A stretch of 64,000 bases of DNA from Alphaproteobacteria bacterium (GTDB lineage: Bacteria > Pseudomonadota > Alphaproteobacteria > Paracaedibacterales > VGCI01), in assembly GCA_016869075.1 (NCBI GenBank), contig VGEY01000003.1, forward strand, positions 4,657 to 68,656. Reading direction: 5' to 3'. The notes under the pieces were generated by a model. It saw only the letters and a program-made list of their open reading frames with translations. It was not told the origin of the DNA and made no database searches. Shown here in pieces: positions 2,499 through 40,104 of the stretch; the first letter of the stretch is position 1, and each line of letters starts with the position of its first letter. The position numbers and the translations under genes were made by a program.

Positions 2499-2557
2499 CA
2501 AAAATTGAGAACCTTTTTTCTTGAGTTAAACGTATATCTACGATATATTTTTTTATC

Positions 2558-3861: not shown

Positions 3862-3924
3862 GTAGATCTATATTAAAAAGTGATATATGGACATAAACCT
3901 TAACCATAATCGTGCAGGTATGGC

Positions 3925-22818: not shown

Positions 22819-22848
22819 CTTTATCAAAAATGTAAGGATTATAAGAGG

Positions 22849-23115
22849 CTATCCCTCTAATTTGGTTGAGTAGTTCTCTTTATACCACCGCATGATTCCA
22901 TATACACTGATGGCACCCCAAGCAATTTCAATAATAACTGATGTCAAATTCCACGTGTTTAATAAAGAAAACAGAATTAGGAATGTGCCAACAAGATTGA
23001 TAACTGAATAAGCGAGTCCGGTTGCAGACATTTTTTGTGCCTGGAGAAGAAAATATGTAACTAGGATTGAAATAGCTCCAATGATGCCTATTATGTCGTG
23101 CAATTCTATAATCAT
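22849..23115 (-). CDS. Small three-helix membrane protein (CBU_0592-like)
   Basis: DIIGIIG...YFLLQ...YSVINLVG...FSL...NLTSVIIEIAW..IS.YG pattern. Confidence 0.75.
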   Translation of the reverse strand: MIIELHDIIGIIGAISILVTYFLLQAQKMSATGLAYSVINLVGTFLILFSLLNTWNLTSVIIEIAWGAISVYGIMRWYKENYSTKLEG

Positions 23116-23296
23116 ATTTTTATCTATTAATATTTATCATTAAAAAATAATTTATTCTCTCAATTCTTGTTAATATACCAGAATACTTGTCAGCTGGCAA
23201 ATTTCTTTTGTTTGGCTTCTTTGTCAATAAGCTGATGAATGTTCCTTTATGTCCATGGAGGAGTTTTAGAATGAGACTTCACGAAAGATAAATAGT

Positions 23297-24691
23297 TTAT
23301 TTAGTTCCGGTGTAAGGATGAGCTGACAGCTCTTTCAGGAGCCAATCAAATTGTTCACGTAAAATAGAAAGAGTTGCTTCCCAATTATAGTCTCCTACAG
23401 ATATATATCCTTTTGCTCTTCTGCTATCATGGTTAATTTTAATTCTATCTTGTAATACAGGCTGGCGTCTCACAAGCTCTTTTGGAAGATCAGAAAGAAA
23501 TCTATAAGCAAATTCTATGCTATCTATTTCCTCGAATTCATTAAATCCCATATCCCCCTTGATGGCTGCGGTGAGGACGAAAGTAAGATAGTTCTCTGCT
23601 GTACTTTCAAAAGAGAGGGGAGGCGCCGCCTGAAAAAACCGACTTGTGGTACTTTTGACAATTTCTTGTTTTGGCAGGTTTGATTCATGTATCACATTAA
23701 ATCCTGTATCAATCACAAGACCGTGCCTGAGGGCCTCTCCTTTTTGTGTATAAAGGGAAGCTAATTCTAAAATTCTTGCAGAAATATAACTCAAAACAAG
23801 TGCATGTCGATTCAGATGTTCAGGAGTCTCTCCAGCAGCTCCCTTACATAAAGTTGAGAAATGCCCTTCATCATGACACCATGCTAAATAAGGGGACTCA
23901 AAAACACGCCCATGACCAGGAAAGTAATTCTTTTGGAGGCCAAATAACACAATCCCTTTAGAGAGTGCATAGAAAAAATCTTCTTTATCGAACGTGCTGC
24001 TCTCTAACAAAACGAGCGGATAAAGATGATTTTCAAAGACACCCTCTTTCTCGCTTGTATCTTCAAAGCCACTCATAGCCCTCAGACGGGCATTCATCTC
24101 TTTCAATTTCTTCTTTTTATCAGCGGAGGCTGTAGTTTCTTCTGGAGTGAGCAAATATTTTTTTGCTTTTTTTCCTGCATTGCAAATAAGCGGATATTTA
24201 TCAGCACACATGGTCTCTACAGCAACTGTATTCAAAGACTTAGGTGATAAAAATAAAGAACAAAGAATGCCTAATTTTCGAATGTGCGTATAGACGGATC
24301 CTGCTTTTGTTCGATTCAATACGATGCGGGTATAAATATTCACAATGGCGCGCTGATCTTCACTAAGAGCTGCGAGCTCTACAAGAGTGGCCAAATTTGA
24401 AAGAGCGGTAAATGCGCGACATCTATCAAAAAACGGATGCAATGGTTTGTAATAAGGGTCATCTTGAAGAACTTTTTCAATTTTATTTCTCATTTCTTGA
24501 AGATTGAGTTCTGGGTTGGTGACATGCATGTCGATTCTTGTGCGTGTTGTAATTAATTTGGCAGTTACCAACGAGGAGGCGCTAGCAGCATCTTCGACAT
24601 TCTTAAGATCAGCACTGTGAGTCGCAACACTGTTCAGGAAAGAGGCAAAAAGGAAAGGAAGTACTTTTGACATAAAATGGTAGGATCGCAT
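23297..24691 (-). CDS. Hypothetical exported protein with HG / HDxxH / HE motifs
   Basis: 464-aa ORF; signal-like N-terminus (alternative start 24673); GHG...SP..AWCHDEGH...FNVIHE. Confidence 0.75.
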   Translation of the reverse strand: MRSYHFMSKVLPFLFASFLNSVATHSADLKNVEDAASASSLVTAKLITTRTRIDMHVTNPELNLQEMRNKIEKVLQDDPYYKPLHPFFDRCRAFTALSNLATLVELAALSEDQRAIVNIYTRIVLNRTKAGSVYTHIRKLGILCSLFLSPKSLNTVAVETMCADKYPLICNAGKKAKKYLLTPEETTASADKKKKLKEMNARLRAMSGFEDTSEKEGVFENHLYPLVLLESSTFDKEDFFYALSKGIVLFGLQKNYFPGHGRVFESPYLAWCHDEGHFSTLCKGAAGETPEHLNRHALVLSYISARILELASLYTQKGEALRHGLVIDTGFNVIHESNLPKQEIVKSTTSRFFQAAPPLSFESTAENYLTFVLTAAIKGDMGFNEFEEIDSIEFAYRFLSDLPKELVRRQPVLQDRIKINHDSRRAKGYISVGDYNWEATLSILREQFDWLLKELSAHPYTGTK

Positions 24692-24889
24692 GGTTTATTA
24701 ACTCTAACTACTATCATGTTTTCTAAACTTGGAGATATAAAGTGTTGCTAAGTATATAGGTATTCTTTTTTTTAAAACAAGGGATATATGAAGTATGATA
24801 GGTGATTTTAAGAGAGCGAGGAAACTTATATTAGTGCATCATTTTATAAAAAAAGACGACCAAAAACCACATTCTTTTGTGAGGTCGAT

Positions 24890-25756
24890 TTAGCTATCTT
24901 CTTTCTTATGCGGTGACGGTTCAGGCTGTGCGGGCTTTTCAGGAAGCATCGTGGTGGCAAGTTCAAACCATTCAGAAGCAAATTCTGCAGTCCTGAATTC
25001 TCCACCTTGGCAGGGGGAACCCCTTGTCCAATGGATGAGCGCTGGTTTTACTAAAGGAGGAGAATACGTTACCAAGTAATTCCATTCTGCCGGCAATTCT
25101 CCAATTTCATCTTCCGACAGTAACCACTTAAATTGGTGTAAATCTACGTAAGGAGCGTTTTTAACATAATCTGGGGTGAGTTTTTTGCACTTTTTGTTAT
25201 TAAGTAACATCACACTAGACCAATTAAATTTAGTGTAGATTGGAGATTTTCGATCAAGGTTTGTATGTTCTGGATGGTCACGGCCGAAATCTGAATGCTT
25301 CACAACCATGACAGTATATTTATCATCTCGTAAGGCCCATAAGTTTGCTATATCTTCCTTTAACATCATATCAGCAGCATCGCAAAAAAGGGACCATTCC
25401 TTATACTGACTCAGATGGGGCACTAAAAAACGTGAGCGCCCAAAGGGGGACATTTGTTTTGGATCCCATCCGGTGGGGTGAGAACTACCTGCTGGCAGCC
25501 AGCCATTTTTCTCATAAATTTTTTCATTTAAAATAGTAACTTCAATGGGCTTTGAGGCATGTTTATAAACGCTCTCTACAAAGGCATACGTACCGATGGT
25601 GGGTTGACGCTCGTCATAACCTGCAAAAATTTTTATAGGGGATTCTTCTATAGAGTCGCCCGCCTTTAGGGATGGTATGCAGAAGGAAATAAATAGAATT
25701 AAGAAGGCCAAAAAACCACTTTTAAAGAAATTAACTTTATGGACTCTTCTAAGCAT
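24890..25756 (-). CDS. GT-A fold glycosyltransferase (GT8-like/CDI-like) with signal peptide
   Basis: IFAGYDER, SRFLVPHL, WSLFCD, DIANLW, VMVVKH, NWSSVML, LHQFKWL, IGELPAEWNYLV, IHWTRGSP; GGAGG RBS before ATG 25756 (track start 25801). Confidence 0.88.
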   Translation of the reverse strand: MLRRVHKVNFFKSGFLAFLILFISFCIPSLKAGDSIEESPIKIFAGYDERQPTIGTYAFVESVYKHASKPIEVTILNEKIYEKNGWLPAGSSHPTGWDPKQMSPFGRSRFLVPHLSQYKEWSLFCDAADMMLKEDIANLWALRDDKYTVMVVKHSDFGRDHPEHTNLDRKSPIYTKFNWSSVMLLNNKKCKKLTPDYVKNAPYVDLHQFKWLLSEDEIGELPAEWNYLVTYSPPLVKPALIHWTRGSPCQGGEFRTAEFASEWFELATTMLPEKPAQPEPSPHKKEDS

Positions 25757-25920
25757 CGTTTCCTCCATAGTATGTCTTGCTAGCGGTTCAGATTTTCGCA
25801 TAAACCCCCATGAAAGCGCAAGTGAAATGAAAAGGTGCGGTCTTTAAGAAAGTCTTAAAGTGTAGGGGTGTATGCTGATCTTAAGAAATGTTTGCATTTG
25901 ATGAATGAGGAGAAACTTAC

Positions 25921-27378
25921 ATGAAAACGAAATTATTTTTTTGGATCATCACAGCGTTGATAGGAACAGGTGTGATCTGTGGTGCAAGCGAGGCAATGGA
26001 TAAGCGGAATATTACTAATTCGAAATCGAGTTCTTCTTATGTTAAGCCGAAAAAAACATCTGAAATGCGTTCTATAGATGAAAAAAAGACAAATTTACCA
26101 CGTGAGGTTTCTGTAAATGGAGTCAAGTGGCAAACTGACTATAAGGCAACTGAACAGGGATATACATCCTATTATCCTCCTAATACTGGAAGTATGTTAA
26201 AAAAAGTAACAAATCATTTAACGGTCGATGGATGGAGTGAAGAACATCAAGCCCTCCTCTTCCACATCACTATTTTAGAAAAACCCACTCAGGAGCAAGG
26301 AGTGGCGGGCAAGTTTCTTATGCAAGGAGAAAAGTTAGGGCATGCTCATACAATTAGCTACCTATATAAAGATGGGCAGGATTTCATTACCCATAAAGAC
26401 TCGGGAGATATCATTAAACTTGATGGCGATATACACGACTCTGCAACCGATAAATTGGCACGAGATTTTATAAAAGGTCTAAAGAACACCTATGAGTTTA
26501 AAAATATGAACATAAAAGATGTTAAGACAAGCATTCGGCTTCAAAACGAGAATCAAAGATATAAAGAAAGAATAGGGCAAAGCAAAAGTGAGTCTAGCAG
26601 GAGCAGTGATCGAGGAGGCAGTCGTTCAGATTCTAGATACGGTGACAGAAGAGATAGCAGAAAGGATCTATACGATCGGGATAGCAAACGAGAGGATGAG
26701 AAAGATAAGTATCGGAGGAAAGACAGCCAAGGTTATCGAGGTGATGACAGACAAGATCGAAAAAAACACGAGAGTACAGAGAGTTCAAGTGGCGAACACG
26801 AAAGAGATCGGGATCGCAAGCATAATCCAGAACGGAACAGAAAAGAAAATCGTGATCGTCAGAAAGAGAAACTTCGTGATCAAAGGTCAACAAATGATGA
26901 TACAAGAAGCACATCTGATCATAAAGACAAGGATAGAAAACGTGATCGGAAAGCTGGAGGGACCGAAAAGAGTGATTTAGAGAAGGATCAGAAACGTCGG
27001 GAAATAAAGAAAGGTCAGTCGAGTGATAGTTCTAAAGGAAAAAGGGAGCAATCTCCGACTTCTAAAATAGAAACTGAGGGACTAATAATAATTGAGCCAC
27101 AAACTGATCAGAAGCCGCTCCTATCCAAAAAACAAGGGTTGCAACACGGGGGTAGGCCCACGACTGGCGGATTAATCCCATACACGTCACAACCCACACC
27201 TCAAAATCAGAATCAGGGTGGACTCCAACAGCCCCAAAAAATATTGACAGAAGAAGAGAAGAGAGCAGCCCGAATAGAAGGATGGAGAAAAATGAAGGAG
27301 CAGAAAGCTCAGGAATCTCAAACCACACAAAAATCATCCGATGAGAAATCTATGGAATTCTCAGAGGAAAAAAGGTAG
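25921..27378 (+). CDS. Exported protein with long Arg/Asp/Lys/Glu/Ser low-complexity region
   Basis: GAGGAG RBS; signal peptide ending SEA|MD; about 180-aa globular-looking region, then RD/RS/KD-rich tract and Gln-rich tail. Confidence 0.85.
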   Translation: MKTKLFFWIITALIGTGVICGASEAMDKRNITNSKSSSSYVKPKKTSEMRSIDEKKTNLPREVSVNGVKWQTDYKATEQGYTSYYPPNTGSMLKKVTNHLTVDGWSEEHQALLFHITILEKPTQEQGVAGKFLMQGEKLGHAHTISYLYKDGQDFITHKDSGDIIKLDGDIHDSATDKLARDFIKGLKNTYEFKNMNIKDVKTSIRLQNENQRYKERIGQSKSESSRSSDRGGSRSDSRYGDRRDSRKDLYDRDSKREDEKDKYRRKDSQGYRGDDRQDRKKHESTESSSGEHERDRDRKHNPERNRKENRDRQKEKLRDQRSTNDDTRSTSDHKDKDRKRDRKAGGTEKSDLEKDQKRREIKKGQSSDSSKGKREQSPTSKIETEGLIIIEPQTDQKPLLSKKQGLQHGGRPTTGGLIPYTSQPTPQNQNQGGLQQPQKILTEEEKRAARIEGWRKMKEQKAQESQTTQKSSDEKSMEFSEEKR

Positions 27379-27391
27379 GGGGTATACAAAG

Positions 27392-27410
27392 AGAGGAAAA
27401 TTTATCCTCT
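27392..27410 (+). terminator. Probable intrinsic terminator
   Basis: agagga-aaattta-tcctct followed by tgttgt, 13 bp after the stop at 27378. Confidence 0.4.
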
Positions 27411-27705
27411 TGTTGTGCATATAAAATTAAGGTCTTTCCACTATTTGTAACTCTATACCGGTCTTATATCTTTTTCTTTCGCATACTAATAAATAATTGC
27501 GCACCCGTACCTAATCACTCTACGTAGGTATACTTTACGAATAAACTTGAACTCCAAGCAGGCGTATTTTCTTTAAGTAAGGCTGGGTGGCAAGTTCTTT
27601 GTTTTGACTCCCCTGAATTTATGCCACCCACCTGATGATACTGAAAGAGAATTGCTCTCTATATTAAATTTGGAACTTAAACTTATCAAATGAATGGAGT
27701 GGGTT

Positions 27706-28650
27706 ATGAAGCATCGAGCGTTTGGAATTATTTTTGGAATTATCGTTCTGTTTTTAGGGCGAGTGCCTGTTACAACAGCGTGTTGTTGGCCAGGGGGATA
27801 TGATGTCTTTGAGGAAGAATTGAGTTATCAACCGGCACCTACCTCGCGCGCACTGAGCAAAAAACTTCCTCCGCTTAAACATTATTCTGTCGATGTAACG
27901 ACCTACGCAAATGGAAGAACAACTGACAGTCGTCTTGTTGACTCGCCTCTCGTATCAATGTCGACACCTATTCATATTGGCGCCCTTATCGGCCATGATG
28001 ATCGAACAAGAGTTAAAGCGCCTCACACTCAAGGAAAGTGGAGACCCCATGGTCTTCTCCACATTGATTTTGGAAAAGGTCGAGGAGGCACTGGCAGTGG
28101 AACGATGATTCATCCGCACCATGTTTTAACAGCTGGTCATTGTGTTCATGATGATGAATTGGGTTGGGCTCGTAGTCTTACCTTTTCTGCTGCACAAGAG
28201 GGAGATAGCACTCCTTTTGGGAAAGCAAATGTTGTAGAAATCTACACCGTTAAAGAATGGGTTAAAAAGAAAAATCCTGAATGGGATCTTGCTCTTCTTG
28301 TTCTAGACAGAGATCTTGGGTTTCAAACTGGATGGCAGGGCCTTCTAAGCGCATCAGATAAACTCTTGAGTACACTTTCTATGACAGTATCAGGATATCC
28401 TGGAGATAAAGGCACAAAGTATTTATACACAATGTCTGGGCGGCTGAAAGCTTATAATGATGAGCGTTTTACTTATCTTATGGACACTAATAAAGGACAG
28501 AGTGGTGCCTCTGTCTGGACGACTTTGACTGATAATAAAAACTATTGTTGTGGCATTCATACAAATGGTCAAACTGATGTGGAAAATACAGCAACAAGAA
28601 TCAGTGGGACGAAGTTTGATCTTCTCACGGAATGGATGAAAAAGTCGTGA
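27706..28650 (+). CDS. Trypsin-fold serine protease, V8/glutamyl endopeptidase-like, pre-pro form
   Basis: LIGHDDR mature start, GSGTMI, VLTAGHC (His), DLALL (Asp), GYPGDK, DTNKGQSGA (Ser), GIH; GGAG before ATG 27706 (track start 27694). Confidence 0.92.
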   Translation: MKHRAFGIIFGIIVLFLGRVPVTTACCWPGGYDVFEEELSYQPAPTSRALSKKLPPLKHYSVDVTTYANGRTTDSRLVDSPLVSMSTPIHIGALIGHDDRTRVKAPHTQGKWRPHGLLHIDFGKGRGGTGSGTMIHPHHVLTAGHCVHDDELGWARSLTFSAAQEGDSTPFGKANVVEIYTVKEWVKKKNPEWDLALLVLDRDLGFQTGWQGLLSASDKLLSTLSMTVSGYPGDKGTKYLYTMSGRLKAYNDERFTYLMDTNKGQSGASVWTTLTDNKNYCCGIHTNGQTDVENTATRISGTKFDLLTEWMKKS

Positions 28651-28743
28651 GAATTGTGCCTCACAGTGCTCAGGACTCTCGTGCTGTGGGGCATTCATAG
28701 AAAAAAATGATGAAATTAAAATTTTTAAATGTGGAGATTAAAA

Positions 28744-30141
28744 ATGCTCTTTGCAAAAAAAACTCTTTCGACTGCATTCGTATGGATATCCTTATTTTTC
28801 GTAAATTATGCGTCTATCCTTGCTAAAGAGGTCATAGATATTGATGTGTTTTCTTTTCCATCAACTCAGACAAAAGGTGTGCGCGTTGTTGCCTTTGACA
28901 CTGATGCCCAAAGGTTCACAGGTATACATTATTTTGTCCAACCTACCAAAACTGTTATTAGATGCAGTTTGTGGGGGATGAAATTTGATTCTGAAGGAAA
29001 TGTGGATTTAACAAAACAGTTCAAATTAAAGGACCGCATTCTGACTACCAAAGGGACGCTTAAAGTTGAAGGTGAAGATGCTACAGATGTTGCAGTTGCT
29101 GATGAAGATGCAAGTGAAGGTGATGAGTGGGTTCTGAAATCGCTTAGTGATTTTCATAATAATGGATCTGAAGTTACACGCCTAGTTTTAAGTCTTAAAA
29201 AAGTGGAAATAAAGTCAGGTGCTCATATCATGGCAAGCATGAATACTCATGCGGGAAAAGTACAATCTAAGAAGACTTTTCAAGCAACATTTCATCGAGG
29301 CGAGAATGTAGAAACAGAAACTTTTGGTAATTTGACGAGTGTGGGAGTGGATAATAATAACGAAAGAGGAAATCTCGGAGAATTGGCAACAAAGCTGACG
29401 ATGATTGGTTTTGGATATGGGGGGCATTTTTCCAAATATGGAACGGACAATGGTTTTGATGGCATCTTTACGGATATCTCTGGTAATCCAGAGATGTTTA
29501 TCACAGAATCAAAATGCCGTGAAAGAGCTGATGGTGTAAAAACAATTATGAGAGATAATCTTTCAGAAGAAAAAATAAATTTCAAATTAAAGCGGATTTC
29601 AACACATACGCATCCCTCTTTATCTGACGAAGCAAGAGAACGTTTGGTTGCAACGGGAGAGTTGGTGAGAGAATTTATATCTCAATCTCCAGTAAAAATT
29701 TTCAAATTTGCCCACCGTATTAAATCAGATGGAACATGTGAGTGTTTGGTAGAAAAGTTTGACTTGAGTAAATATCAGGCGAGCCTATTGCCAACACTTT
29801 CCCCTGAGTCACCAACAAAAGATAAAGTCACGGCACTGAAGGGCGTTACTCAACAACTTTGTTCCAGTGAAGATCAAAAAGCCGAGCTTTATATGCGTAC
29901 GCTCGTAGGAACCCAAGAGGACAAGTTGAGACTCGTTTTTGGAGCCTTAAAACTGGATGATGAGCAACAAGAGGCAATGCTTGCCGTTTTGGCTCCTAAA
30001 AAGAAAGTTAATCGAGTATTATTTATAAATACTGATGGTGACTCAGTGGGTAATGGTGAAGAAGCTTCTGGAACAGAGTCAGCTGAGGAGTTTGAAAAAG
30101 AAGATGAATATGCACATGACTCAGATGCAGAAGCAGCGTAG
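28744..30141 (+). CDS. Exported protein with central PD-(D/E)XK (restriction-endonuclease fold) nuclease-like domain and acidic tail
   Basis: Signal peptide ending ILA|KE; GNLGE...DNGFDGIF...FITESK; GGAGA before ATG 28744 (track start 28729). Confidence 0.7.
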   Translation: MLFAKKTLSTAFVWISLFFVNYASILAKEVIDIDVFSFPSTQTKGVRVVAFDTDAQRFTGIHYFVQPTKTVIRCSLWGMKFDSEGNVDLTKQFKLKDRILTTKGTLKVEGEDATDVAVADEDASEGDEWVLKSLSDFHNNGSEVTRLVLSLKKVEIKSGAHIMASMNTHAGKVQSKKTFQATFHRGENVETETFGNLTSVGVDNNNERGNLGELATKLTMIGFGYGGHFSKYGTDNGFDGIFTDISGNPEMFITESKCRERADGVKTIMRDNLSEEKINFKLKRISTHTHPSLSDEARERLVATGELVREFISQSPVKIFKFAHRIKSDGTCECLVEKFDLSKYQASLLPTLSPESPTKDKVTALKGVTQQLCSSEDQKAELYMRTLVGTQEDKLRLVFGALKLDDEQQEAMLAVLAPKKKVNRVLFINTDGDSVGNGEEASGTESAEEFEKEDEYAHDSDAEAA

Positions 30142-30167
30142 AAAGATATTGTAGGAATGATAAAAAA

Positions 30168-30198
30168 AGGGAAATATCTTGTTCTAAGATATTTCCCT
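30168..30198. terminator. Intrinsic terminator, copy 1 of a duplicated element
   Basis: agggaaatatctt-gttct-aagatatttccct, 13-bp perfect stem; A-run on the left gives a U-tract on the minus strand; lies between convergent genes. Confidence 0.85.
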
Positions 30199-30221
30199 TA
30201 AAGACAAGAGCAAAACTACTT

Positions 30222-30620
30222 TTATCTTATGCCTAAGAGGGTGTTGAGCAACTGAACATGTTCCATTGTTGGTTTTTTAATCATCACACAATCTTGCAGA
30301 TAAGCAATAATATTACAATTTGAAGCAGTTGGAGGAAGAAGTAGGAGATGCTGTTGAATATAGGCAGCTGCTTCTTTCTGTCGGAGCATAATTTTTTTAT
30401 TTATTGTCTCTTCAGTAGAAGTTTGGAGAGGAAAGCCATACATTCTGGCAATATCATTTTTTTCTATAGGAAATGCGTGCGTTGTGGGATTTGAGTTCTT
30501 ATCCATGATTTCTGCATTTCTTTGCACGACACTCTCAACAGCCCGAAGTGGGCCTACAGCATGCCCAAAGAATATTAAAGATCCTATTATAAAAAATAAT
30601 TTGTTGAGGGTATGTATCAT
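30222..30620 (-). CDS. Small hypothetical exported protein
   Basis: 132-aa ORF; GGAAGG upstream; signal peptide ending LRA|VE; followed by terminator copy 1. Confidence 0.7.
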   Translation of the reverse strand: MIHTLNKLFFIIGSLIFFGHAVGPLRAVESVVQRNAEIMDKNSNPTTHAFPIEKNDIARMYGFPLQTSTEETINKKIMLRQKEAAAYIQQHLLLLPPTASNCNIIAYLQDCVMIKKPTMEHVQLLNTLLGIR

Positions 30621-30845
30621 TGTTCAACCTTCCGGTATTGTGCTTTTAAAAAAAAATATGTTTGAGATATTAATATATATTTTAATGAAATGCTTTTTTA
30701 TAAGCAAATTATTTGCGAAGAACATGAAAATGGGGACAAAAAAGTATAATTAGTTTTTTTGGTAAAATGGGTTATGTGATAATGAAGTTTGTTAGCCTCT
30801 AGAGGAAGAGGTGGGTTATGTAAAAGCTTGTAAAAGAATTAAAAA

Positions 30846-30876
30846 AGGGAAATATCTTGTTTTAAGATATTTCCCT
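30846..30876 (-). terminator. Intrinsic terminator, copy 2 of a duplicated element
   Basis: agggaaatatctt-gtttt-aagatatttccct; one loop base differs from copy 1. Confidence 0.85.
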
Positions 30877-30898
30877 AAAGCCTAAAGGATAAAGTTAT

Positions 30899-31939
30899 TT
30901 ACTGTTGAGTCCCATAATAGAATGGTGTAATGGCTTCAACTTTTATGTGATTATAATTTCCTTGGTCAATAATTGAAATTTCAGCCAGCTCTGTAACATC
31001 AATTTTATTTCCATCCTTATCATATAAATACCCTTGCCCAGGTTTTAAACTGTCCTTTAATATTTTTTGCATGCTGCCGATAGGAGATACCGTCATTACT
31101 GTTTTACTCGGAAATTCCACTTGCACAACTGCGCCGATAAATCCATGCATCGCGGTGGCTAAGCCTGAGTCTCCCCCGTTTATAATGGAGACAGGGTTCC
31201 TAAAAATTCCTCTGTTTTCATAAGTATTGGGGCCAATATCATGTTTTTTGTTGTTCTTGCCGAGAGGCCTAACTCCTGCCATGCATGTGGATAAGCACAT
31301 GATTATTCTTCCATAATTTTCAAAATATGCCTTAATAGTATCTGTTCCATCTGTCGGTGTCTCTGATGGGGTATTTGAAAAAGAAAATGTTGGATCCGCC
31401 GTGATATACACGAAATAGTTTTTCCCTTTGCAACCCTCTATTTTCTCACCATTAAGAAGCTGTGAGGCCCCTGCATAAGTACATTCGAGCATTTTCAGTT
31501 TTTTAGGATTTTGACTTAGGGCAGCAAGTTTTGCTTTTAAGTCGACAAGAGCTTGGCCAGAGTATCCAGAAATTTTTGAAAGGTCGTCTCCATATTTTTC
31601 AATTTGGTAGTTATTTTCTTCTTGTGGTTGTAAAAATAAATATAAGATCCCTATACCCCTTCTGGTCAACCAACCGGTTCTTTTTTCAAAAACAGTTAAA
31701 TTTTTTTCAAGCTCTGGAGTTATGTGCTGCATTCGAATATGAAGTTTTTTACCAGTATCCGTTGTGAATTCACCCTCAAAAACACCTGGACTTACCTGAC
31801 GGGGCTTTGTGCCGTGAAAGTGAGAAAGGGCAGGAGCGGGAGCATCAATTTTTTCTCTCTCCGCAGCCTTCATGGGCGTTAAGATAAGAGAAAACAAGGG
31901 TATATAAAAAATAATCACTTTAGAATACATAAAAAACAT
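30899..31939 (-). CDS. Hypothetical exported protein
   Basis: 346-aa ORF; signal peptide ending MKA|AE; YENRGIFRNP...GLATAMHGF segment; 137 bp downstream of tssA on the same strand. Confidence 0.8.
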   Translation of the reverse strand: MFFMYSKVIIFYIPLFSLILTPMKAAEREKIDAPAPALSHFHGTKPRQVSPGVFEGEFTTDTGKKLHIRMQHITPELEKNLTVFEKRTGWLTRRGIGILYLFLQPQEENNYQIEKYGDDLSKISGYSGQALVDLKAKLAALSQNPKKLKMLECTYAGASQLLNGEKIEGCKGKNYFVYITADPTFSFSNTPSETPTDGTDTIKAYFENYGRIIMCLSTCMAGVRPLGKNNKKHDIGPNTYENRGIFRNPVSIINGGDSGLATAMHGFIGAVVQVEFPSKTVMTVSPIGSMQKILKDSLKPGQGYLYDKDGNKIDVTELAEISIIDQGNYNHIKVEAITPFYYGTQQ

Positions 31940-32076
31940 TTTTCTGTTGGGGATTTATATTATAGTTCTGTTCACAAATAAGCATTCATAATTCAGAAGT
32001 CAAGAAGGGAATGTTTTTTTTAGTTTTTTCAAATAATTATGTCTAAATCTTATTTTGCCAAGAATCAAGATTTTTC

Positions 32077-33222
32077 TTATTGAGGGGGGGCGCCTAAGAC
32101 CTTCATGAGTGTTTCATATTCTTGCGGGGATTGTGCGATTTCTTTAAAGATGTCGAGAATGTTCTTATTTTCCCAGCGGATAAGTTGGCGAATGAGCTGC
32201 GGGGCAAGGCTATGCGGGTCATTCTCTTCAAGAAAAGCGGCAATGATATCCAGAAGTTTGTAAGCATCTTTACGTGTGGTAAGGCTTAATGTATCGGAAG
32301 AGCTTTGGGGTGAAGCAGGTGCACCTTCTTGCATCGTTTGAGGAGAATCAGCGGAAGATTGTTGAGATATCTGCTCAGACGAAGGGTCACTCTTGATAAT
32401 AGGTTTGCGCGTTTGAAGAGCATTATTAATGATGCGATGCATTTCCTTTAACGTTCCCAGAAGAATTGAGAAAGAAGGAGCTTGGTTCCCCACAAAATCA
32501 GTAAGGCTCTTTTTCAAACTTAATGTTGAATCAAGAGCAATCGTTAAATTCTCATGATATTCAGCTATATATTCATCAGAAGTTTGTTCCATACTCTTTT
32601 GAAATTCTTCAACTGTCCCAATGTTCTTCGAAGGATCTTCGCGTGTTTGAGCGGATGGTTTATCAAGACGCTTTTTGGCAGCATCACTATGCTGTGCAGA
32701 TTTTAAGTACCCTAAACTAAAGCCTTTTTGGTCAAATTTTGAATAGGTTAATTCGATGGATAGAAGGCGGTAAGAAAGGGTCGTATCCATCCATTCAAAA
32801 ATCATCAGACGGCTTTCAATGTCTTCAGTATCTGGTACTTGAGGGTGAATGTCATCCCATAGAGCTTCAATTAAGCTAATAAAGATTTGAATACCAAGAG
32901 AATATCCTTTAATGCCATCAAGCATTGTCCATGCCTCAAGGAGCCATGCAGCAAGCTGAAGGTCTTTAGATTTTGACGTCAGTGCTTCCACACAAAGAGC
33001 TTCAATCTTATTCCAATCAGCCTTCTTCAATTCAGTTTCCCAAATGCCCATGGAAAGACGTGGGTCGTCCTCTTGACGGGCAAGGCGAATCTCATCATAG
33101 ACAGGATCGTAGCGTAAAGAGGGACCGACAGGATTGTTGCCTGCGATTGGAGCAACAAACGCATTATAGTCAGGTATGCTCACTCTTGAAGCAGGCTTAG
33201 ATGTAGATGGCATTTCTGTCAT
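32077..33222 (-). CDS. tssA: Type VI secretion protein TssA (ImpA N-terminal domain)
   Basis: PVGPSLRYDPVYDEIRLAR.EDD, ADW, SKDLQLAAWL, WDDIHP; C-terminal TRKDAY...DPHS...IRW. Confidence 0.93.
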   Translation of the reverse strand: MTEMPSTSKPASRVSIPDYNAFVAPIAGNNPVGPSLRYDPVYDEIRLARQEDDPRLSMGIWETELKKADWNKIEALCVEALTSKSKDLQLAAWLLEAWTMLDGIKGYSLGIQIFISLIEALWDDIHPQVPDTEDIESRLMIFEWMDTTLSYRLLSIELTYSKFDQKGFSLGYLKSAQHSDAAKKRLDKPSAQTREDPSKNIGTVEEFQKSMEQTSDEYIAEYHENLTIALDSTLSLKKSLTDFVGNQAPSFSILLGTLKEMHRIINNALQTRKPIIKSDPSSEQISQQSSADSPQTMQEGAPASPQSSSDTLSLTTRKDAYKLLDIIAAFLEENDPHSLAPQLIRQLIRWENKNILDIFKEIAQSPQEYETLMKVLGAPPQ

Positions 33223-33225
33223 GGA

Positions 33226-36200
33226 TTAACCTGCTTTACCATTCTTAGCAGCTGCATCATCGGCTGGAGCTTCATCAGAAGAATCATCATCAGATGATTT
33301 AGATTTTTTCTTATCATCTTTCTTTCCCTTGGCTGCCTTTTCCTTGCTCTCAATATCTTCCTTAATTTCCGGGGAAATTTCCACCTGTCCCATTATAATG
33401 ACAGGCTTTTCAGCAACATCCTGAATGGATTGATCTAATGCTGGTGCGTCAGTTGGAAAGTTTGGCATCTCAAGGGGAGCTCCCGGCTTCTTTCCTTTAG
33501 GAGGTTTAAGTAAAGTGACACGATCAAAAATAATGGTGTTCGTATCAGGACCATTGGGAATGGTAAACTTTAATGTTGTGGGCTTTGTGTCTTGCATATT
33601 GTCAAAATCACTGCTGGTGGCTTGTTGTGTGCGCAACATCCAGAAGAGGGCCCACTGTCCTGGATAAGTATATGTCACGGTTTGTTCATTCACAGCCATA
33701 AAGGGTTGTGCTTTATCTTGGAATGGTTGTGTTTCAGCCGAGTCAGGCCAGCGGAAGGTTAATATTACAGGATTCCCATAACTCCATCGCCCAAGATTTG
33801 ACTTGTCTGTATTGGAAATCTTCGTATTAGCATCAGGGGCAATCGCCCATTCAATAATCATATTTCCCCCAATTTCTTTTTCTTTATTAACTCGAAAATC
33901 AACACTGAAATCGAAAGTGGGAACATCTCCAGGTGTTTTCGAATTAAGGAAATTTTGGAAAAATTCTCTGACACCTTCCATGGCTGTTAAAAACTGATAA
34001 GGTTCTTTTGCGGCATCTCCTAATTGGTAAACTTGCTCAAGAATATTTTTAGCGCTGTCTCCTGCATCATGGAAAATGGTGAAAAAGTTTTTAATATCTG
34101 CAGGGTCAGCTTCACCTTGGCTTTGAGAAGCATTTTCACCTACGAAGGGGAATTTATCTTTCAGCGTTGTGTTGAAAACTTCAACCAGCTTTTCATAGTT
34201 ATTAATGGATTCTTTTCGCTTAGCAACCTCGCACCGAGTCATAAGAGCGCGTTGAAGTTGAATACGACGATCTTGGAAGAAATCGTTGGATGATTTTTTG
34301 GCGCTTGCAACAGATAATTTTGTAAAGCAATTGCTCATAGTTAAATCACTTCCATCAACTTCAATGAAATTTTCAAGCGCACTAATAGAATTATTGGGCT
34401 GCTTTTTATCGTAGTGTGAAAGTTGGGAGATAATGCGGTTCCAACGGTTTATAAGAGCCTGCTTTCCAACGTATCCTTGCATTTGAGGAGATGTTAAGAG
34501 GACAAGAATGGGTTGGGCATAATCAACAGCAAGATGAGAAATAAGTTGGCGTTGATGATCAAGATAAGATTTTAATTCGTCTTGATCTTTTACTGCAAAT
34601 CCTTCTAAAAAGACAGGAGATTTACCATCCCACCAATCAAAGTTATTTTCACGAACTTTATAAGGTAAGTATGAAATGAGGAGTGCGTCAACCTTCTCTA
34701 AAAGACGTGTTGCCAATATGCCGAGTAGGTTTTGAAGTTCAACAAATATTGTACCACTTTGTGAGTGCTTGAGTGTCTCTAAGAGTTTTATAAAGTGAGG
34801 CACTATTGTTTTTACATTTCCAATTTTACTGCGCAAAAGTTCTTCTTGAGCATCCCCGATATCTGGTCCCTTTGGAACATCAACTAGGCTTTGAGCTTTT
34901 GCAATATTACTTATGACATTGAGATGTAAATTCTGCAAAGCGATCTGTTTAAAGGTTTCTCGTAATTGTACTGGAAAATGTTGTAAGTCCTTTTCAACAA
35001 AATCTTCATATCTCTTTATTAATTTGGTGGTTTCATCAATAAGATCCTGATTCCAAAAAATGACTTTGTTTTCTGGAACTTGTGAAATGAACATTTCTCC
35101 ATTCGATTTTGCCATAAAGGGCTCTGCAAAAAGTTTACTCAAGTTCTTTTCCAGATTAAATATTCCCTCAGAAGGTTGAATAGGTTTATTGGAAGGTGTG
35201 GCGCTTAAACTTATCAATACCCGATTCATTTGTAACAACTCTTGATGGAAAGCTGTATATGCAAGACTGGTTTGCTTTGCCAATTGTTCAACAAAGGCAG
35301 GGCCAAAGGGGGAAAGCTCATCCACTTGTGTCATTAAGTCTACGAACTCTTGACCAGGGTCAAAGTAGGCTGCATCAATCCAGTTATGTCCTGCTGAACC
35401 AAGAGTTGGGAGGCTCTGTCCAAGATCACTGATAAAACCTCTTACCACTTCGAGGTTAATGGGTTGAGTGTTCTGGCCTGACCCAAGGGTTGTTGTTAAA
35501 TATCGCAACTGTCCAATAAGCGACATAGGATCAGTTTGAGAGAATAATATTGAAAGGAAATTAGTATAGAGCCCTAAAAACGTGCTTTGAGCAATGGGGT
35601 GATAGTCTTTTAAATTAATAGCGGGATATGGAGCTTCTTGAAGAAGTTTTTGAAATTTTTGATAGGACTCCGTAAATTCCGGAGGTAAATGCATATTAAA
35701 TGTATATTCAATAAGCTCGTTTAAAAGTGTAGGATCTGGAGTCTCACGTAAACGATTATATTTATCGATATGATGTGTTAATTGAGCAATTTGGTTAACG
35801 TAGGTTTTTAAGTGTTGAAATTCCACAGTTCCTGTGGGATTAAGCAGTTGCCCAATGGCGGTTGTCTTTTGATGTATTTCATAAGGGGGTGTTCCTGGGC
35901 GAATATTTAAGGTGTCCCGAGCCTTGAGAAGAAGGTCCATATAAATAGTGCGTAAAATAATTTGCTCATAAGATATTTTTAGGGAGCTGTTCAAGTGATC
36001 CTGGAGCGGACTAAACCAAGAGGAAGGAATAAAGAAAGAAAAAAAGCTTGAGCGGTGAACATGGTGCATCATCTCAAGGAGGCTTTTTGCTTGATTATCA
36101 AATAAGGCTTCCGTGCCGTGAGCCCCCCCAACGGGTGAATTAGGAAGTTGTGTAAGAATAGAGCTTACTTTCCCTAACACTGGCATCAAATAATCACGAT

Positions 36201-37701
36201 TCTTTGTAAAGTTATCGTACGCATTAAACATGCCGAAAGTACCAATACCTACAAAAGCAACCATACCTGCTTTTGCCAAATTTATATTTCTGTTGGCCGA
36301 TACAAGTCGACTATAAATTGGGTAGGCAAGGCCAGACTCAAAGAAAATTTTATCTTCGAAAATATCTCTACCAAATGCAATTTTACGAATAGAAGTGTCA
36401 AAATATTGCGATTCTTCAGATGTGGGTGGACTTGTTCGATTTTGTCGCTCAATACCATAATCAATTTTTTCATGCCATAATTGGAGGGCTTCTTCATTGA
36501 TCTCCAGGGGCATTGTCGAAAGAGACAAGTCTGCTTTAAGTTGTTGGTTTTCAGCCTCTTCTAAAACATCTTCTCCAATAGAAAATCCAGCTGGAAATTT
36601 ACCGCAATCACCACAAAAATAGATACCGCGGAGCATAAGAGATTCAACATAGGCACTAGATTTAAAAATATGATTTAAATAATTCTTTAAACCACTTTTG
36701 AGTGAAAGAAATTCATTAGGTAATACGTAAACTCCTTCTTTATTTTCATCGGAAACTCCTTGAGTGAACATTTCCAATTGTACACTCGACATATCCTCAA
36801 AAATTGTATGGAAAGCTTCATCAACCCAATGAGGAGTATAGGCTGTATGGAGGGCATAAGGGACTGACCATCCGAGCATGTTGTTCAGTCGTGCAAAAGG
36901 TAATTCATGACAGAAGCTTTGAAAACCAGGTAAGAAATCGCATTTTGTGACGACGACATATACAGGCAGACGCAGTCCTAGAAGATGTTGAGCCGCCGCA
37001 AGTTTTTGAGACAAAAACTTTGCGCGCGCATTGATATTTTCTGGGCTTAAGCGCTCCCGTCCATAAAGCTCTGTAGCAGGAATTGTCAGTATAATCCCAT
37101 CAAGAGGGCGTTTTGCACGATAACGTCCGAGAAGGCTTAACACAGATCTCCATCCCCGTTCATCTGAAGAAGCTTTATGTTCATCTATAACCAACGATCC
37201 ATGAATATCTAATACGACGGCCCTGTTGAAAAACCACCAACGACAAGCAGGATGAGGATCTTTAATACCTAAATCAGGCATTCCCACAGGCAAGTTCATT
37301 CCTGCAAATTCAAGTAAGGTTGATTTTCCGGAATTACTTGCCCCAACCATTAAATACCATGGAAGCTGATATTTATAGGTTATGTTATCAAGACGGTCTC
37401 TTAAGAAAACAAGAGCGCGCAGAAATGATAGGCTGATATCACCTACTCGAAAGATACCTCTTAAGGTTAAATATCGTGAAATCCGTCCACCAATGGGCGG
37501 CATTTTATATTCCAAGATGGTTTCTTCTTTTGGCTCTTTTTTGGAAGGAGGCGGAGCCCCTTTTTTCTCAGCTTTCTTAATTGCATAATTGGTGAGAAAT
37601 GTAAGCAATAAAATCATTATTACTGCTAGTATTGTAACAGTTAAAATGACTTCTGGCAGTCGGCTTCCGAGATGGGAAAGGGATTGCAAAAACGAATTCA
37701 T
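33226..37701 (-). CDS. tssM: Type VI secretion membrane subunit TssM/IcmF
   Basis: YQLPWYLMVG.SNSGKSTL, CRWWFF, RPLDGIILTI, LPVYVVVTKCD.LPGF, LRGIYFCG, second TM helix, KFPF and GQWALF near the C-terminus. Confidence 0.93.
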   Translation of the reverse strand: MNSFLQSLSHLGSRLPEVILTVTILAVIMILLLTFLTNYAIKKAEKKGAPPPSKKEPKEETILEYKMPPIGGRISRYLTLRGIFRVGDISLSFLRALVFLRDRLDNITYKYQLPWYLMVGASNSGKSTLLEFAGMNLPVGMPDLGIKDPHPACRWWFFNRAVVLDIHGSLVIDEHKASSDERGWRSVLSLLGRYRAKRPLDGIILTIPATELYGRERLSPENINARAKFLSQKLAAAQHLLGLRLPVYVVVTKCDFLPGFQSFCHELPFARLNNMLGWSVPYALHTAYTPHWVDEAFHTIFEDMSSVQLEMFTQGVSDENKEGVYVLPNEFLSLKSGLKNYLNHIFKSSAYVESLMLRGIYFCGDCGKFPAGFSIGEDVLEEAENQQLKADLSLSTMPLEINEEALQLWHEKIDYGIERQNRTSPPTSEESQYFDTSIRKIAFGRDIFEDKIFFESGLAYPIYSRLVSANRNINLAKAGMVAFVGIGTFGMFNAYDNFTKNRDYLMPVLGKVSSILTQLPNSPVGGAHGTEALFDNQAKSLLEMMHHVHRSSFFSFFIPSSWFSPLQDHLNSSLKISYEQIILRTIYMDLLLKARDTLNIRPGTPPYEIHQKTTAIGQLLNPTGTVEFQHLKTYVNQIAQLTHHIDKYNRLRETPDPTLLNELIEYTFNMHLPPEFTESYQKFQKLLQEAPYPAINLKDYHPIAQSTFLGLYTNFLSILFSQTDPMSLIGQLRYLTTTLGSGQNTQPINLEVVRGFISDLGQSLPTLGSAGHNWIDAAYFDPGQEFVDLMTQVDELSPFGPAFVEQLAKQTSLAYTAFHQELLQMNRVLISLSATPSNKPIQPSEGIFNLEKNLSKLFAEPFMAKSNGEMFISQVPENKVIFWNQDLIDETTKLIKRYEDFVEKDLQHFPVQLRETFKQIALQNLHLNVISNIAKAQSLVDVPKGPDIGDAQEELLRSKIGNVKTIVPHFIKLLETLKHSQSGTIFVELQNLLGILATRLLEKVDALLISYLPYKVRENNFDWWDGKSPVFLEGFAVKDQDELKSYLDHQRQLISHLAVDYAQPILVLLTSPQMQGYVGKQALINRWNRIISQLSHYDKKQPNNSISALENFIEVDGSDLTMSNCFTKLSVASAKKSSNDFFQDRRIQLQRALMTRCEVAKRKESINNYEKLVEVFNTTLKDKFPFVGENASQSQGEADPADIKNFFTIFHDAGDSAKNILEQVYQLGDAAKEPYQFLTAMEGVREFFQNFLNSKTPGDVPTFDFSVDFRVNKEKEIGGNMIIEWAIAPDANTKISNTDKSNLGRWSYGNPVILTFRWPDSAETQPFQDKAQPFMAVNEQTVTYTYPGQWALFWMLRTQQATSSDFDNMQDTKPTTLKFTIPNGPDTNTIIFDRVTLLKPPKGKKPGAPLEMPNFPTDAPALDQSIQDVAEKPVIIMGQVEISPEIKEDIESKEKAAKGKKDDKKKSKSSDDDSSDEAPADDAAAKNGKAG

Positions 37702-38495
37702 GAAATCCCCATCTGATGCGCTTGAAGTAATATTTGACTCAAATATTCATCCATGCCTTTTACAAGCTTGTACCACAATATAGTCGAAGCAAAGAGGTAG
37801 GCACCGATTATGCCCGCAAAAGTCAAAAGCCACATTCTAATTTCTGGTAATCCCTTACCTAGCGTGGAATCTAAAACATGTTCGTAGCAATCTTGTATCA
37901 AGTGCTCTCGTCCAGGCTCATAAAGATCTGAAGGGCGTCGATTAACGACAATGTAAAGTTGCTTTTTGTAGTATTCCAACTTTGTTTGATCTTCATCTTT
38001 GTCCCGAAATTTACCCATAAATCCGAGGCCTAAAATGTAAAGATAAACCATTGCAAGATCAGAGCGCATCGGGTCATTGTGAGCAATGAGATCATCAATT
38101 TTATCAAATATAAGCTCTCCGGCAATTTGTGTTTGAAAAAAGCGACTCTCGAGTAAATTATCTTCCCATTCCTTTTGCCCTATCCATGAAATATTTAGAA
38201 AAATTTCATCAGCTAAAGCAATCATCGCGTACAATGCATCTTGATATGAGCTGGTGGCAAACTCTCCGACTTGTATGGTTGACTCAACAGCTTGCTCTTC
38301 AAAAAGCACGCTCAAGCGTCTTTGAATTGTATTAACAATGTTTGCTACTTTGTCATTACCTGCTTGTTTTTCAAGCTTTAAAGGATCTTTTTCATTAGCC
38401 CTTAATGCAAATTCTTTTTGGCGCAAGAGCAAATTAAAAAACTCACGAAAATTATGAACTAGAAAAGAATGAGAAGGAACTTTAAAATGACTCAT
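37698..38495 (-). CDS. tssL: Type VI secretion protein TssL/DotU
   Basis: ALYAMIALADEIFL, W...LLE..FF.TQIAGE..F, YL..LGLGF.GKFR, C-terminal TM helix; no OmpA-like domain. Confidence 0.93.
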   Translation of the reverse strand: MSHFKVPSHSFLVHNFREFFNLLLRQKEFALRANEKDPLKLEKQAGNDKVANIVNTIQRRLSVLFEEQAVESTIQVGEFATSSYQDALYAMIALADEIFLNISWIGQKEWEDNLLESRFFQTQIAGELIFDKIDDLIAHNDPMRSDLAMVYLYILGLGFMGKFRDKDEDQTKLEYYKKQLYIVVNRRPSDLYEPGREHLIQDCYEHVLDSTLGKGLPEIRMWLLTFAGIIGAYLFASTILWYKLVKGMDEYLSQILLQAHQMGIS

Positions 38496-38497
38496 AC

Positions 38498-39856: not shown

Positions 39857-40104
39857 CCAGTTCTCCTTCACCTATTCTCTATATCAAGGACAAATGATAA
39901 AATTTAATAAAAATCCTTTCTTTCTAGTATGAGCAGATTATGCGCCTGAGACAAGGGTGTAATATCCCTAAAATTGAATTTTATAGCAGATTTTTTTTGA
40001 TAAATATAAAAACCCTTGGAAGTGGTTTTAAGTAAATATAGATTTGTAAATGGCACATCAATTATTATAAGAATAAGATAAAAAAGATTCTTATAAATTA
40101 CGAT

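Follow-up and report, generated by a model that had tools for sequence, protein, structure and literature searches.

Seven consecutive genes with signal-like N-termini beside tssA: a strain-specific insertion in a probable Holosporales-type endosymbiont

The stretch of DNA analyzed here (the window) comprises 64,000 nucleotides from an Alphaproteobacteria bacterium, namely positions 4657-68656 of contig VGEY01000003.1 (C3 in the following) of assembly GCA_016869075.1. The genome examined (G000) consists of 1.55 Mb in 35 contigs, is 78% complete and has a GC content of about 40%. The source bacterium is probably a small-genome, protist-endosymbiont-type member of the Holosporales from lake water; the assignment to this order was suggested by the layout of its type VI secretion system (T6SS), as well as by the best named homologue of one of the genes described below (o5), which comes from Ca. 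Odyssella thessalonicensis. Seven consecutive open reading frames (ORFs), o1 to o7, occupy positions 23297-31939 of the window between a gene for a small membrane protein and tssA of the T6SS, with the strand order -, -, +, +, +, -, -. All of them were present at these positions and their translations were checked. A preliminary description of this locus, made from the sequence alone, had read the seven genes as an island of host-directed effectors whose products cross the inner membrane by the Sec pathway and might then leave through the adjacent T6SS channel, TolC, a T2SS-like system or vesicles. The features of the locus are as follows (positions of the window).

22849..23115, minus strand: gene for a CBU_0592-family small membrane protein (NCBIfam NF047864, 2e-26); left boundary of the insertion
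23297..24691, minus strand: o1, signal-bearing orphan of 464 aa; likely start at Met7
24890..25801, minus strand: o2, GT8-like glycosyltransferase whose N-terminus forms a signal or anchor; it probably begins at Met16, near position 25756
25921..27378, plus strand: o3, orphan of 485 aa with a signal, a 190-aa domain and a mixed-charge tail rich in Arg, Asp, Ser and Lys
27694..28650, plus strand: o4, predicted S1B (glutamyl-endopeptidase-like) serine protease of secreted type; CCW.GG motif 3' of the signal
28729..30141, plus strand: o5, 470 aa with a signal, a beta-rich N-domain, a PD-(D/E)xK-like core (D244, E260-x-K262) and an acidic tail
30160..30201, no strand: terminator-like hairpin of 42 nt, copy 1, between the convergent o5 and o6
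30222..30620, minus strand: o6, signal-bearing orphan of 132 aa
30838..30879, no strand: hairpin of 42 nt, copy 2 (93% identical), just downstream of o7
30899..31939, minus strand: o7, predicted GNAT-fold protein of 346 aa, carrying a helical insert and, at its N-terminus, a hydrophobic segment; start ambiguous
32077..33222, minus strand: tssA (TIGR03363 7e-70, PF06812 5e-34); right boundary of the insertion
33226..39871, minus strand: tssM (1491 aa), tssL and tssK, the rest of the tssK-L-M-A module; context outside the island

Each of the seven genes matched only itself when compared with the whole genome by tblastn, and o1-o7 are therefore not paralogues. Together with the strand pattern, this bears out the statement of the preliminary description that the cargos are mutually unrelated and mixed in orientation. 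The codon-usage scores of o1-o7 were similar to those of the flanking housekeeping genes, and the GC bins of the island (0.33-0.42) were not clearly different from the window. No tRNA gene was found in the window, and no integrase or long direct repeats flanking the island. Both junctions of the island were bridged by contigs from four other lake-water runs, which possibly belong to one sampling campaign. The left junction was covered by contigs X6 (22017-24529) and X5 (22817-24325) and the right junction by X5 (30721-33400) and X6 (31464-33145), in all cases with no differences. This recurrence of both junctions indicates that the island is not an assembly chimera. Among the 24 runs listed, none was an RNA run carrying this sequence. 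The 42-nt terminator-like hairpin has a perfect stem and a T run, and its copies stand 3' of o6 and of o7. Its arm was detected only at these two sites in the 1.55-Mb assembly, and allowing up to one mismatch added just two unrelated half-matches. The pair may represent a shared terminator that arrived along with the genes, or it may have arisen by duplication on the spot.

N-terminal signals were called with a heuristic that required positive charge in the n-region, an h-region that is hydrophobic and uncharged, agreement with the -3/-1 rule and no further transmembrane (TM) segment, using score thresholds of >= 3.4 (strict) and >= 2.8 (loose) on the 1367 ORFs called across the genome (87.6% coding). 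A first version of the heuristic, which scored 38% of the ORFs as positive, was discarded. Six of the seven island ORFs were signal-like at the strict threshold and all seven at the loose one, compared with a genome background of about 18% (strict) to 21% (loose), and o1-o7 form the longest run of signal-like ORFs in the genome. As the heuristic overcalls, the background proper would be lower than these values. In 2000 shuffles, the probability of a maximal run of at least 7 was 0.026 at the loose threshold and that of at least 6 was 0.044 at the strict threshold. Seven consecutive ORFs with signal-like N-termini, as claimed initially, were thus recovered. The next-longest run was composed of a signal-like ORF without Pfam match, TolB, an OmpA-family (Pal-like) lipoprotein and the false positives GalU and Ugd, and another long run consisted of three paralogous ABC substrate-binding proteins of housekeeping type. 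The signals of o1, o3, o4 and o6 displayed standard lengths and sites by the heuristic. Homologues of o1 (5 of 5 aligned) and of o5 also had signal-like N-termini, as did the o4 orthologues. SecY is encoded in the genome (6e-111) and LspA within the window.

The cleavage motifs THS/AD, LKA/GD, SEA/MD, TTA/CC, ILA/KE, LRA/VE and MKA/AE (the slash marks the proposed site), which had been given for o1-o7 beforehand, were all found in the translations. With these sites, Asp or Glu occupied position +2 in six of the seven proteins, whereas the share was 31% among 242 signals predicted elsewhere in the genome (binomial P 0.005). The sites predicted here differ for o1, o6 and o7, so that this excess depends on the choice of site, and the acidic +2 residue was dropped as a mark of the island. 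The 31% among the 242 signals outside the island compares with 11% Asp plus Glu across the proteome; an acidic +2 is a genome-wide habit and not an island mark.

The neighbourhood of tssA was compared among relatives. A search of 41 genomes, namely G000 plus the 40 relatives closest to it, detected tssA in 38, and the tssA flanks of up to 20 kb from 20 relatives were analyzed by tblastn with all local genes. No match to o1-o7 was detected in these flanks. In the congeners G004 and G002, tssA is followed by a CBU_0592-family gene after about 160-260 bp. Beyond this gene, G004 carries lpxC, an MFS gene and prmC, in the same way as beyond the island in G000, and in G002 the CBU_0592-family gene was the only one matched. 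The congener G001 has a 1.4-kb gap beside tssA with two small, different signal-bearing orphans (16494-16988, minus strand; 17236-17541, plus strand), and G003 has two paralogous signal-bearing ORFs beside tssA (2395-2997 and 3397-4185, plus strand); none of these four had a Pfam match. The locus of G005 is rearranged and clpB adjoins tssA, and the contig of G006 ends 167 bp past tssA and is uninformative. Five of the seven ORFs had no match in the six congeners searched, and o1 was missing from four of the six. Within 61 other genomes of the order, matches were found for o1 in 2, for o2 in 1 (a weak match of 35 aa), for the o4 domain in 16, for the o5 family in 6 (0 in the genus) and for o7 in 4, while o6 and the N-terminal domain of o3 had 0 matches each; the distribution of the seven is thus patchy.

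Since tssA adjoins the CBU_0592-family gene in G004 and G002 and the orthologues of o1 and o4 sit elsewhere, the island of about 8.7 kb is, on comparative sequence grounds, a G000-specific accessory insertion at a junction that is variable within the genus. Among the nearest downstream ORFs of tssA (four per locus in 20 relatives), 15 of 77 were signal-like, or 17 of 77 when the two G003 ORFs seen by eye are included. Either value corresponds to the background rate, indicating no signal enrichment downstream of tssA. As to the question raised by the preliminary description, whether relatives also carry signal-bearing orphans beside tssA, G001 and G003 do, with different ones, and G004 and G002 do not. 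Its caveat that tssA might just mark an insertion hot spot accounts better for the neighbourhood, and the adjacency to tssA looks like an accident of insertion site. The 137-bp gap between tssA and o7 contains a predicted promoter-like site and no terminator-like site.

Among the seven genes, o4 gave the clearest family match. It matched the Pfam family Trypsin (PF00089) at 3e-9, with 37.4 bits versus a cut-off of 20.6, and Trypsin_2 at 5e-8, also above cut-off. The comparison with PDB entry 1p3c, a glutamyl endopeptidase, gave 1e-15 over 190 residues, in which the GHC and SG blocks of the enzyme's catalytic site were paired with TAGHC and GQSGAS of o4, with an identity of about 25-30% as estimated by eye. 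We regard o4 as a predicted S1B serine protease of the glutamyl-endopeptidase-like type with putative Glu specificity. The Bacillus intermedius enzyme BIEP (1p3c) and the staphylococcal V8 protease are exoenzymes with which o4 shares a Sec signal and a pro-region, whereas the Cys-rich CCW.GG motif after the signal was found in o4 and its congeners only. Full-length o4 orthologues in G001 and G005 have kept both the signal and this motif, and they are located on contigs other than the tssA contig. In the relatives G061, G031, G025 and G028, the o4-type domain also stands at the C-terminus of giant ORFs (1000-1900 aa), with 17 matches in G061 alone; these ORFs have the look of a polymorphic family whose members are large, secreted and tipped with a protease. 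ORFs of insertion sequence (IS) transposase type, recognized by eye, flank o4 orthologues in G001 (contig C10, 121-941) and G031 (177-500 and 2394-3073), which fits a location of o4-type genes in a mobile part of the genome.

The o2 protein matched PF01501 with an E value of 0.0027 and 17.8 bits, below the cut-off of 24.3. A total of 454 homologues were detected, mostly of 224-233 aa and without an N-terminal extension, and a PF01501 match was precomputed for about one quarter of the 120 homologues listed (40-52% identity to o2). Several homologues are named glycosyltransferase or lipopolysaccharide (LPS)-biosynthesis glycosyltransferase, and they occur in Burkholderiales, Rhodospirillaceae and the like. 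The o2 protein and its four nearest relatives share an extra hydrophobic N-terminus and the motif D-x-x-D-M, while the signal-less relatives have D-[GCS]-D-M and start at the catalytic domain. A single-sequence search of PDB with o2 gave no match. From these similarities, o2 would be a GT8-related protein rather than a scored member of GT8.

No Pfam family was matched by o7, for which 151 representative clusters were detected at E <= 1e-3. The AlphaFold2 (AF2) model, calculated from a 55-sequence alignment, had a mean predicted local distance difference test (pLDDT) value of 85. In the VIA structure search, all 50 matches listed were chains of the GNAT superfamily, with Z scores of 6.4-8.8 over 117-185 aligned residues, where a Z near 8 is the caution line of the tool. 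The structural neighbours include the acyl-homoserine lactone (AHL) synthase LasI, Hat1, NatD, aminoglycoside acetyltransferases and TacT; the predicted fold matches GNAT acyltransferase and AHL-synthase chains over 130-185 residues. Foldseek gave probabilities of up to 0.99, with E values of 5e-3 to 8e-2 and none at or below 0.001. At the sequence level, o7 matched none of the GNAT families of Pfam, and the PDB profile search returned chance-level matches only. The model predicts a GNAT fold with a helical insert of about 90 residues for o7. VipF, an effector of the Legionella Dot/Icm system, is an acyltransferase of the same superfamily.

Relatives of o7, searched with an 11-sequence alignment, were detected in 16 named loci, of which 10 are of Chlamydiae type, two of Legionellaceae, one gammaproteobacterial, one from an Acidobacteria bin and two without a name. 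Compared with most of these relatives, o7 has an extra N-terminal hydrophobic segment. Such a segment was present in 14 and absent in 41 of the 55 aligned family members, and it was clear in three of the four matches from the order versus one or two of the named loci (16 in all). A quick maximum-likelihood tree was built from 72 family members, and a starred branch in it separated a signal-rich half (14 of 18 with signal) from a signal-poor half (5 of 54). The four other copies from the order were placed in the signal-rich half, and the members from Chlamydiota and Legionellaceae in the signal-poor half. The o7 protein itself fell into the signal-poor half on a long branch (1.81), and its place is unsure. 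The signal label changed at least seven times on this tree; it was assigned by a crude hydrophobicity cut that is sensitive to the start codon, and one gene received both labels from two starts. F-box-like N-termini in some o7 relatives were rejected as a feature, the one Pfam match (E 0.0086) being below cut-off.

The o5 family is small, with six homologues among 5.8 billion proteins. The closest named homologue is a hypothetical protein of Ca. Odyssella thessalonicensis, an amoeba symbiont, with 59% identity. All five homologues with an intact N-terminus were signal-like, and the sixth (P0005, 279 aa) covers the C-terminal half only. One relative of 811 aa is signal-bearing and fused to an OTU domain (1.4e-8, above cut-off). 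The residues D244 and E260-S261-K262 are invariant in all seven sequences of the family. The AF2 model of o5 had a mean pLDDT of 64, and VIA gave Z scores of 3.3-4.5, the top matches being mostly PD-(D/E)xK nucleases (CinB, CidB, NlaIV and Hjc). No Foldseek match was found at E <= 0.001, and no PDB match with a single sequence or a profile.

The remaining three genes are orphans. Three homologues of o1 (49-51% identity), all with signal-like N-termini, were detected among 5.8 billion proteins, and the conserved blocks FPGHGRVFE...AW.HD.GHF and IHE.NLP were recognized. The o1 orthologue of G006 (50-55% identity) is located between ybaB and valS. No Pfam or NCBIfam match was found for o1, its PDB profile matches were at chance level, and Protein Atlas gave no usable match. 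Neither o3 nor o6 had a Pfam match. The o3 tail (residues 216-400) consists of 17% Arg, 15% Asp, 14% Ser, 14% Lys and 10% Glu, and these five residues make up 70% of it. Of the initial cargo labels, protease (o4), glycosyltransferase (o2) and mixed-charge protein (o3) were retained, and nuclease-like (o5) holds only through the invariant D...ExK residues and weak fold matches.

The T6SS genes next to the island form a tssK-tssL-tssM-tssA module in this order (TIGR03353 7e-65, DotU 3e-27, IcmF-related_N 3e-46 and TIGR03363 7e-70). The same module has been described for the dispersed T6SS of Holosporales type (portion consulted of PMC8163844). On contig C25, tssB and tssC are followed by a weak Hcp-like ORF and tssE. 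On contig C6 (8705-11913, plus strand), vgrG, a gene for a MORN-repeat (YwqK-like) protein and one for a DUF4280 (PAAR-like) protein form what is likely the T6SS spike module, without any signal-bearing gene next to it. TssF was not found in the 78%-complete assembly, nor did the genome search with PF05638 find an Hcp. The T6SS is not partial, in contrast to the phrase "partial T6SS block" used at first, since the tssB-tssC-hcp-like-tssE and vgrG-MORN-DUF4280 sets are present on other contigs, as in the published dispersed layout (PMC8163844, as far as consulted). According to the consulted part of a 2025 review, the T6SS of this group is conserved and probably non-standard, its cargo is without experimental data, and it seems short of some core parts (PMC11909080).

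Candidate genes for an outer-membrane step were also present. A secretin of 553 aa with a lipoprotein-type signal (...LVSC/RS) is encoded on contig C2 (126576-128237, minus strand), alone among housekeeping genes (ddpX-like, tsaB, rimI and miaB). Contig C13 carries GspE/PilB-like (with a MshEN domain) and GspF/PilC-like genes beside three adjoining ORFs without Pfam match. The secretin and this GspE/F-like set are candidate parts of a type II secretion system, and they could equally represent a type IV pilus. Contig C22 carries a Tad-type ATPase locus, and two TolC-like proteins are encoded in the genome. VirB4 was not found in the 78%-complete assembly. With regard to the second outer-membrane step postulated initially, the genome thus offers candidates (secretin, GspE/F-like and TolC-like genes), and the T6SS channel is disfavoured by the comparison given below.

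Similar situations are known from related bacteria. Ca. Bodocaedibacter vickermanii has 158 SignalP-positive proteins, 66% of them uncharacterised, which were considered "probably secreted" (Midha et al. 2021, PMC8163844, in the portion consulted). Like G000, it has a small genome of about 40% GC and a signal-bearing secretome, which includes serine endoproteases; the idea of lineage-specific signal-bearing orphans of a Holosporales endosymbiont beside a dispersed T6SS is thus already in print. In contrast, that portion of the paper mentions neither seven such genes in one contiguous cluster nor an insertion beside tssA, and none of the families reported here. In Holospora obtusa, the 63-kDa protein PRP1 and an 89-kDa protein are periplasmic and released into the host, and PRP1 reaches the host nucleus and binds DNA (PMC9866348 and PMC11909080, both in part). 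This is a precedent, in the same order if the assignment to Holosporales holds, for Sec export that is succeeded by some passage across the outer membrane. However, Holospora differs from G000 in having no T6SS and a specialised infectious form, and the likeness to o1-o7 is one of description. In Rickettsia typhi, RARP-1 is proposed to be exported via Sec and TolC (PMC9553169, in part). It resembles the island genes as an effector-looking protein with a Sec signal from an obligate intracellular alphaproteobacterium, and TolC-like genes occur in G000 as well, whereas RARP-1 is an ankyrin-repeat protein and unrelated to o1-o7. A literature search found no paper that proposes Sec-dependent export by a T6SS or describes this island; supplementary tables, which may list related proteins, were outside the search.

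Taken together, we favour with moderate confidence the reading that the island represents a Sec-exported, partly host-directed accessory secretome, which neighbours the T6SS by its insertion site only. At the variable junction between tssA and the CBU_0592-family gene it comprises seven unrelated genes, organised as three or more transcription units, and we infer that their products cross the inner membrane via SecYEG. Some products would stay in the envelope or leave as ordinary exoenzymes, o4 for example, while the most plausible workplace of o7, o2 and the o5 family would be in or on the host, once a second, outer-membrane step has been passed. Candidates for this step are the secretin together with the type IV filament system of GspE/F-like type, TolC, vesicles or lysis. 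Export, cleavage, release and host targeting of o1-o7 are all conditional in this scheme. GNAT enzymes need acyl-CoA and GT8 enzymes need nucleotide sugars, and the periplasm is not known to offer either; the substrates of OTU domains are ubiquitin-like modifiers. With such substrates, a periplasmic workplace for o7, o2 and the o5 family is hard to picture, and action in the host would be more economical. The proposal of a host-directed effector island therefore survives in so far as o7, o5 with its OTU-bearing relative, and o2 look host-directed; delivery to the host is conjectural, and the tie to the T6SS was not upheld.

Several observations weigh against this scheme. The S1B proteases are an ordinary type of secreted enzyme, the GT8 match of o2 is under the Pfam cut-off, and the nuclease fold of o5 is weak at the Z scores (at most 4.5) and pLDDT (64) obtained. 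The signal heuristic overcalls, GalU and Ugd being false positives. By eye, long uncharged hydrophobic stretches of 20 aa in o5, 17 aa in o2 and 16 aa in o7 precede the proposed sites, and these stretches could be uncleaved membrane anchors. The o7 protein has no canonical AXA site, with Met at -3 of MKA/AE, and the database gene call begins seven codons further in. The 78%-complete assembly yielded no match to signal peptidase I (PF10502). Moreover, RARP-1 of Rickettsia parkeri stays periplasmic (PMC9553169, in part), indicating that a Sec substrate with the look of an effector need not be released at all.

In accordance with the last point, o1-o7 might all be ordinary periplasmic, inner-membrane-anchored or outer-membrane proteins that serve the physiology of the bacterium itself, such as proteolysis, envelope glycosylation or nucleic-acid scavenging, and never enter a host. 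We hold this to be a serious alternative, if an unlikely one. The protease family of o4, the LPS-biosynthesis annotation of the o2 family in free-living bacteria, the long h-regions as possible anchors, the periplasmic "effector" RARP-1 and the housekeeping content of the other signal-gene runs (Tol-Pal and the three ABC substrate-binding proteins) are all consistent with it. Periplasmic and extracellular nucleases are well known too, and the earlier statement that a nuclease has no obvious periplasmic role was too strong. However, the cofactors of GNAT and GT8 enzymes and the ubiquitin-like substrates of the OTU domain fit such a role poorly, the o7 family occurs mostly in obligate intracellular bacteria, and the absence of five of the seven genes from all six congeners and of o1 from four of them is not the pattern of housekeeping genes. 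A different possibility accepts a function in the host and concerns the origin of the signals. Effector domains that are signal-less in Chlamydiae and Legionellaceae may have been fitted here with Sec signals (o7, o2 and o5 with its OTU-bearing relative), so that the island would be a collection point of re-routed, horizontally acquired effectors. The signal-less relatives are presumably delivered by type III or type IV secretion systems (T3SS or T4SS), and the proteins considered here would go via the periplasm instead. Repeated capture of Sec signals is suggested by the label changes on the o7 tree and by the extension-free relatives of o2, and we advance it as a speculative proposal that is rather improbable at present.

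Two further explanations assign the N-termini or the T6SS a different role. The hydrophobic N-termini might be segments for targeting to a host membrane or to the host endoplasmic reticulum (ER), in effectors that leave by a Sec-independent route. The 41 of 55 o7-family members without such a segment, the lack of an AXA site in o7 and the TM-length uncharged stretches of o2, o5 and o7 would agree with this. However, a basic and strongly hydrophobic N-terminus would be captured by the bacterial signal recognition particle (SRP) and Sec anyway, the signals of o1, o3, o4 and o6 are standard in length and site, and VirB4 was not found in the assembly (T3SS were not looked for); we consider this explanation improbable. 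Even less credit can be given to the view that the products are taken from the periplasm by the adjacent TssJ-less TssL-TssM or otherwise by the T6SS, in which case the adjacency to tssA would be functional. The genes o7 and o6 are indeed downstream of tssA on the same strand with no terminator-like site in the 137-bp gap, two of the five informative congeners (G001 and G003) also have different signal-bearing orphans beside tssA, and the system of this group has been called non-standard, its cargo being without experimental data (PMC11909080, in part). On the other side, the linkage is not kept in relatives, as tssA abuts the CBU_0592-family gene in G004 and G002, the o1 and o4 orthologues lie elsewhere and 15 of 77 is no enrichment; there is also a promoter-like site in the gap between tssA and o7. 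Canonical T6SS cargo is loaded on Hcp, VgrG or PAAR without a Sec signal; its genes stand next to those for VgrG, Hcp, PAAR or adaptors, and PAAR, MIX or Rhs domains are frequent in it. Its only common point with the island is genomic proximity to a T6SS gene. The island proteins have Sec-type N-termini, no PAAR, MIX, FIX, Rhs or adaptor domain (DUF4123, DUF1795 or DUF2169) was found in o1-o7 with Pfam, tssA is their only T6SS neighbour and the vgrG-MORN-DUF4280 module is on another contig. To our knowledge, no T6SS takes cargo from the periplasm. The TssJ-less TssLM channel named as a route in the preliminary description is thus very improbable.

The communication between Holosporales-type endosymbionts and their protist hosts is poorly known, and under the favoured reading of an accessory secretome the island provides a compact list of testable candidates. 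It also gives a caution, as a location next to tssA is no guide to T6SS cargo here. Should the proteins of GNAT-fold, GT8-like and PD-(D/E)xK/OTU-related type reach the host after Sec export, they would represent a two-step route for families that other intracellular bacteria inject directly, and the outer-membrane step by secretin, TolC or vesicles would become the thing to find. If the products stay periplasmic, the island would be ordinary accessory envelope content.

Two side observations concern the T6SS proteins. The Hcp-like ORF between tssC and tssE (C25 11966-12529, plus strand, 187 aa) matched PF05638 with an E value of 0.0029, below cut-off, and it bears on the published remark that core parts of this T6SS are missing (PMC11909080, in part). 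TssM (33226-37701, minus strand) matched IcmF-related_N as its only Pfam family (residues 178-463), and TIGR03348 with 196 bits versus a cut-off of 388. Its 1491 aa are long for the family, and its C-terminus forms a tail rich in Lys, Asp and Ser.

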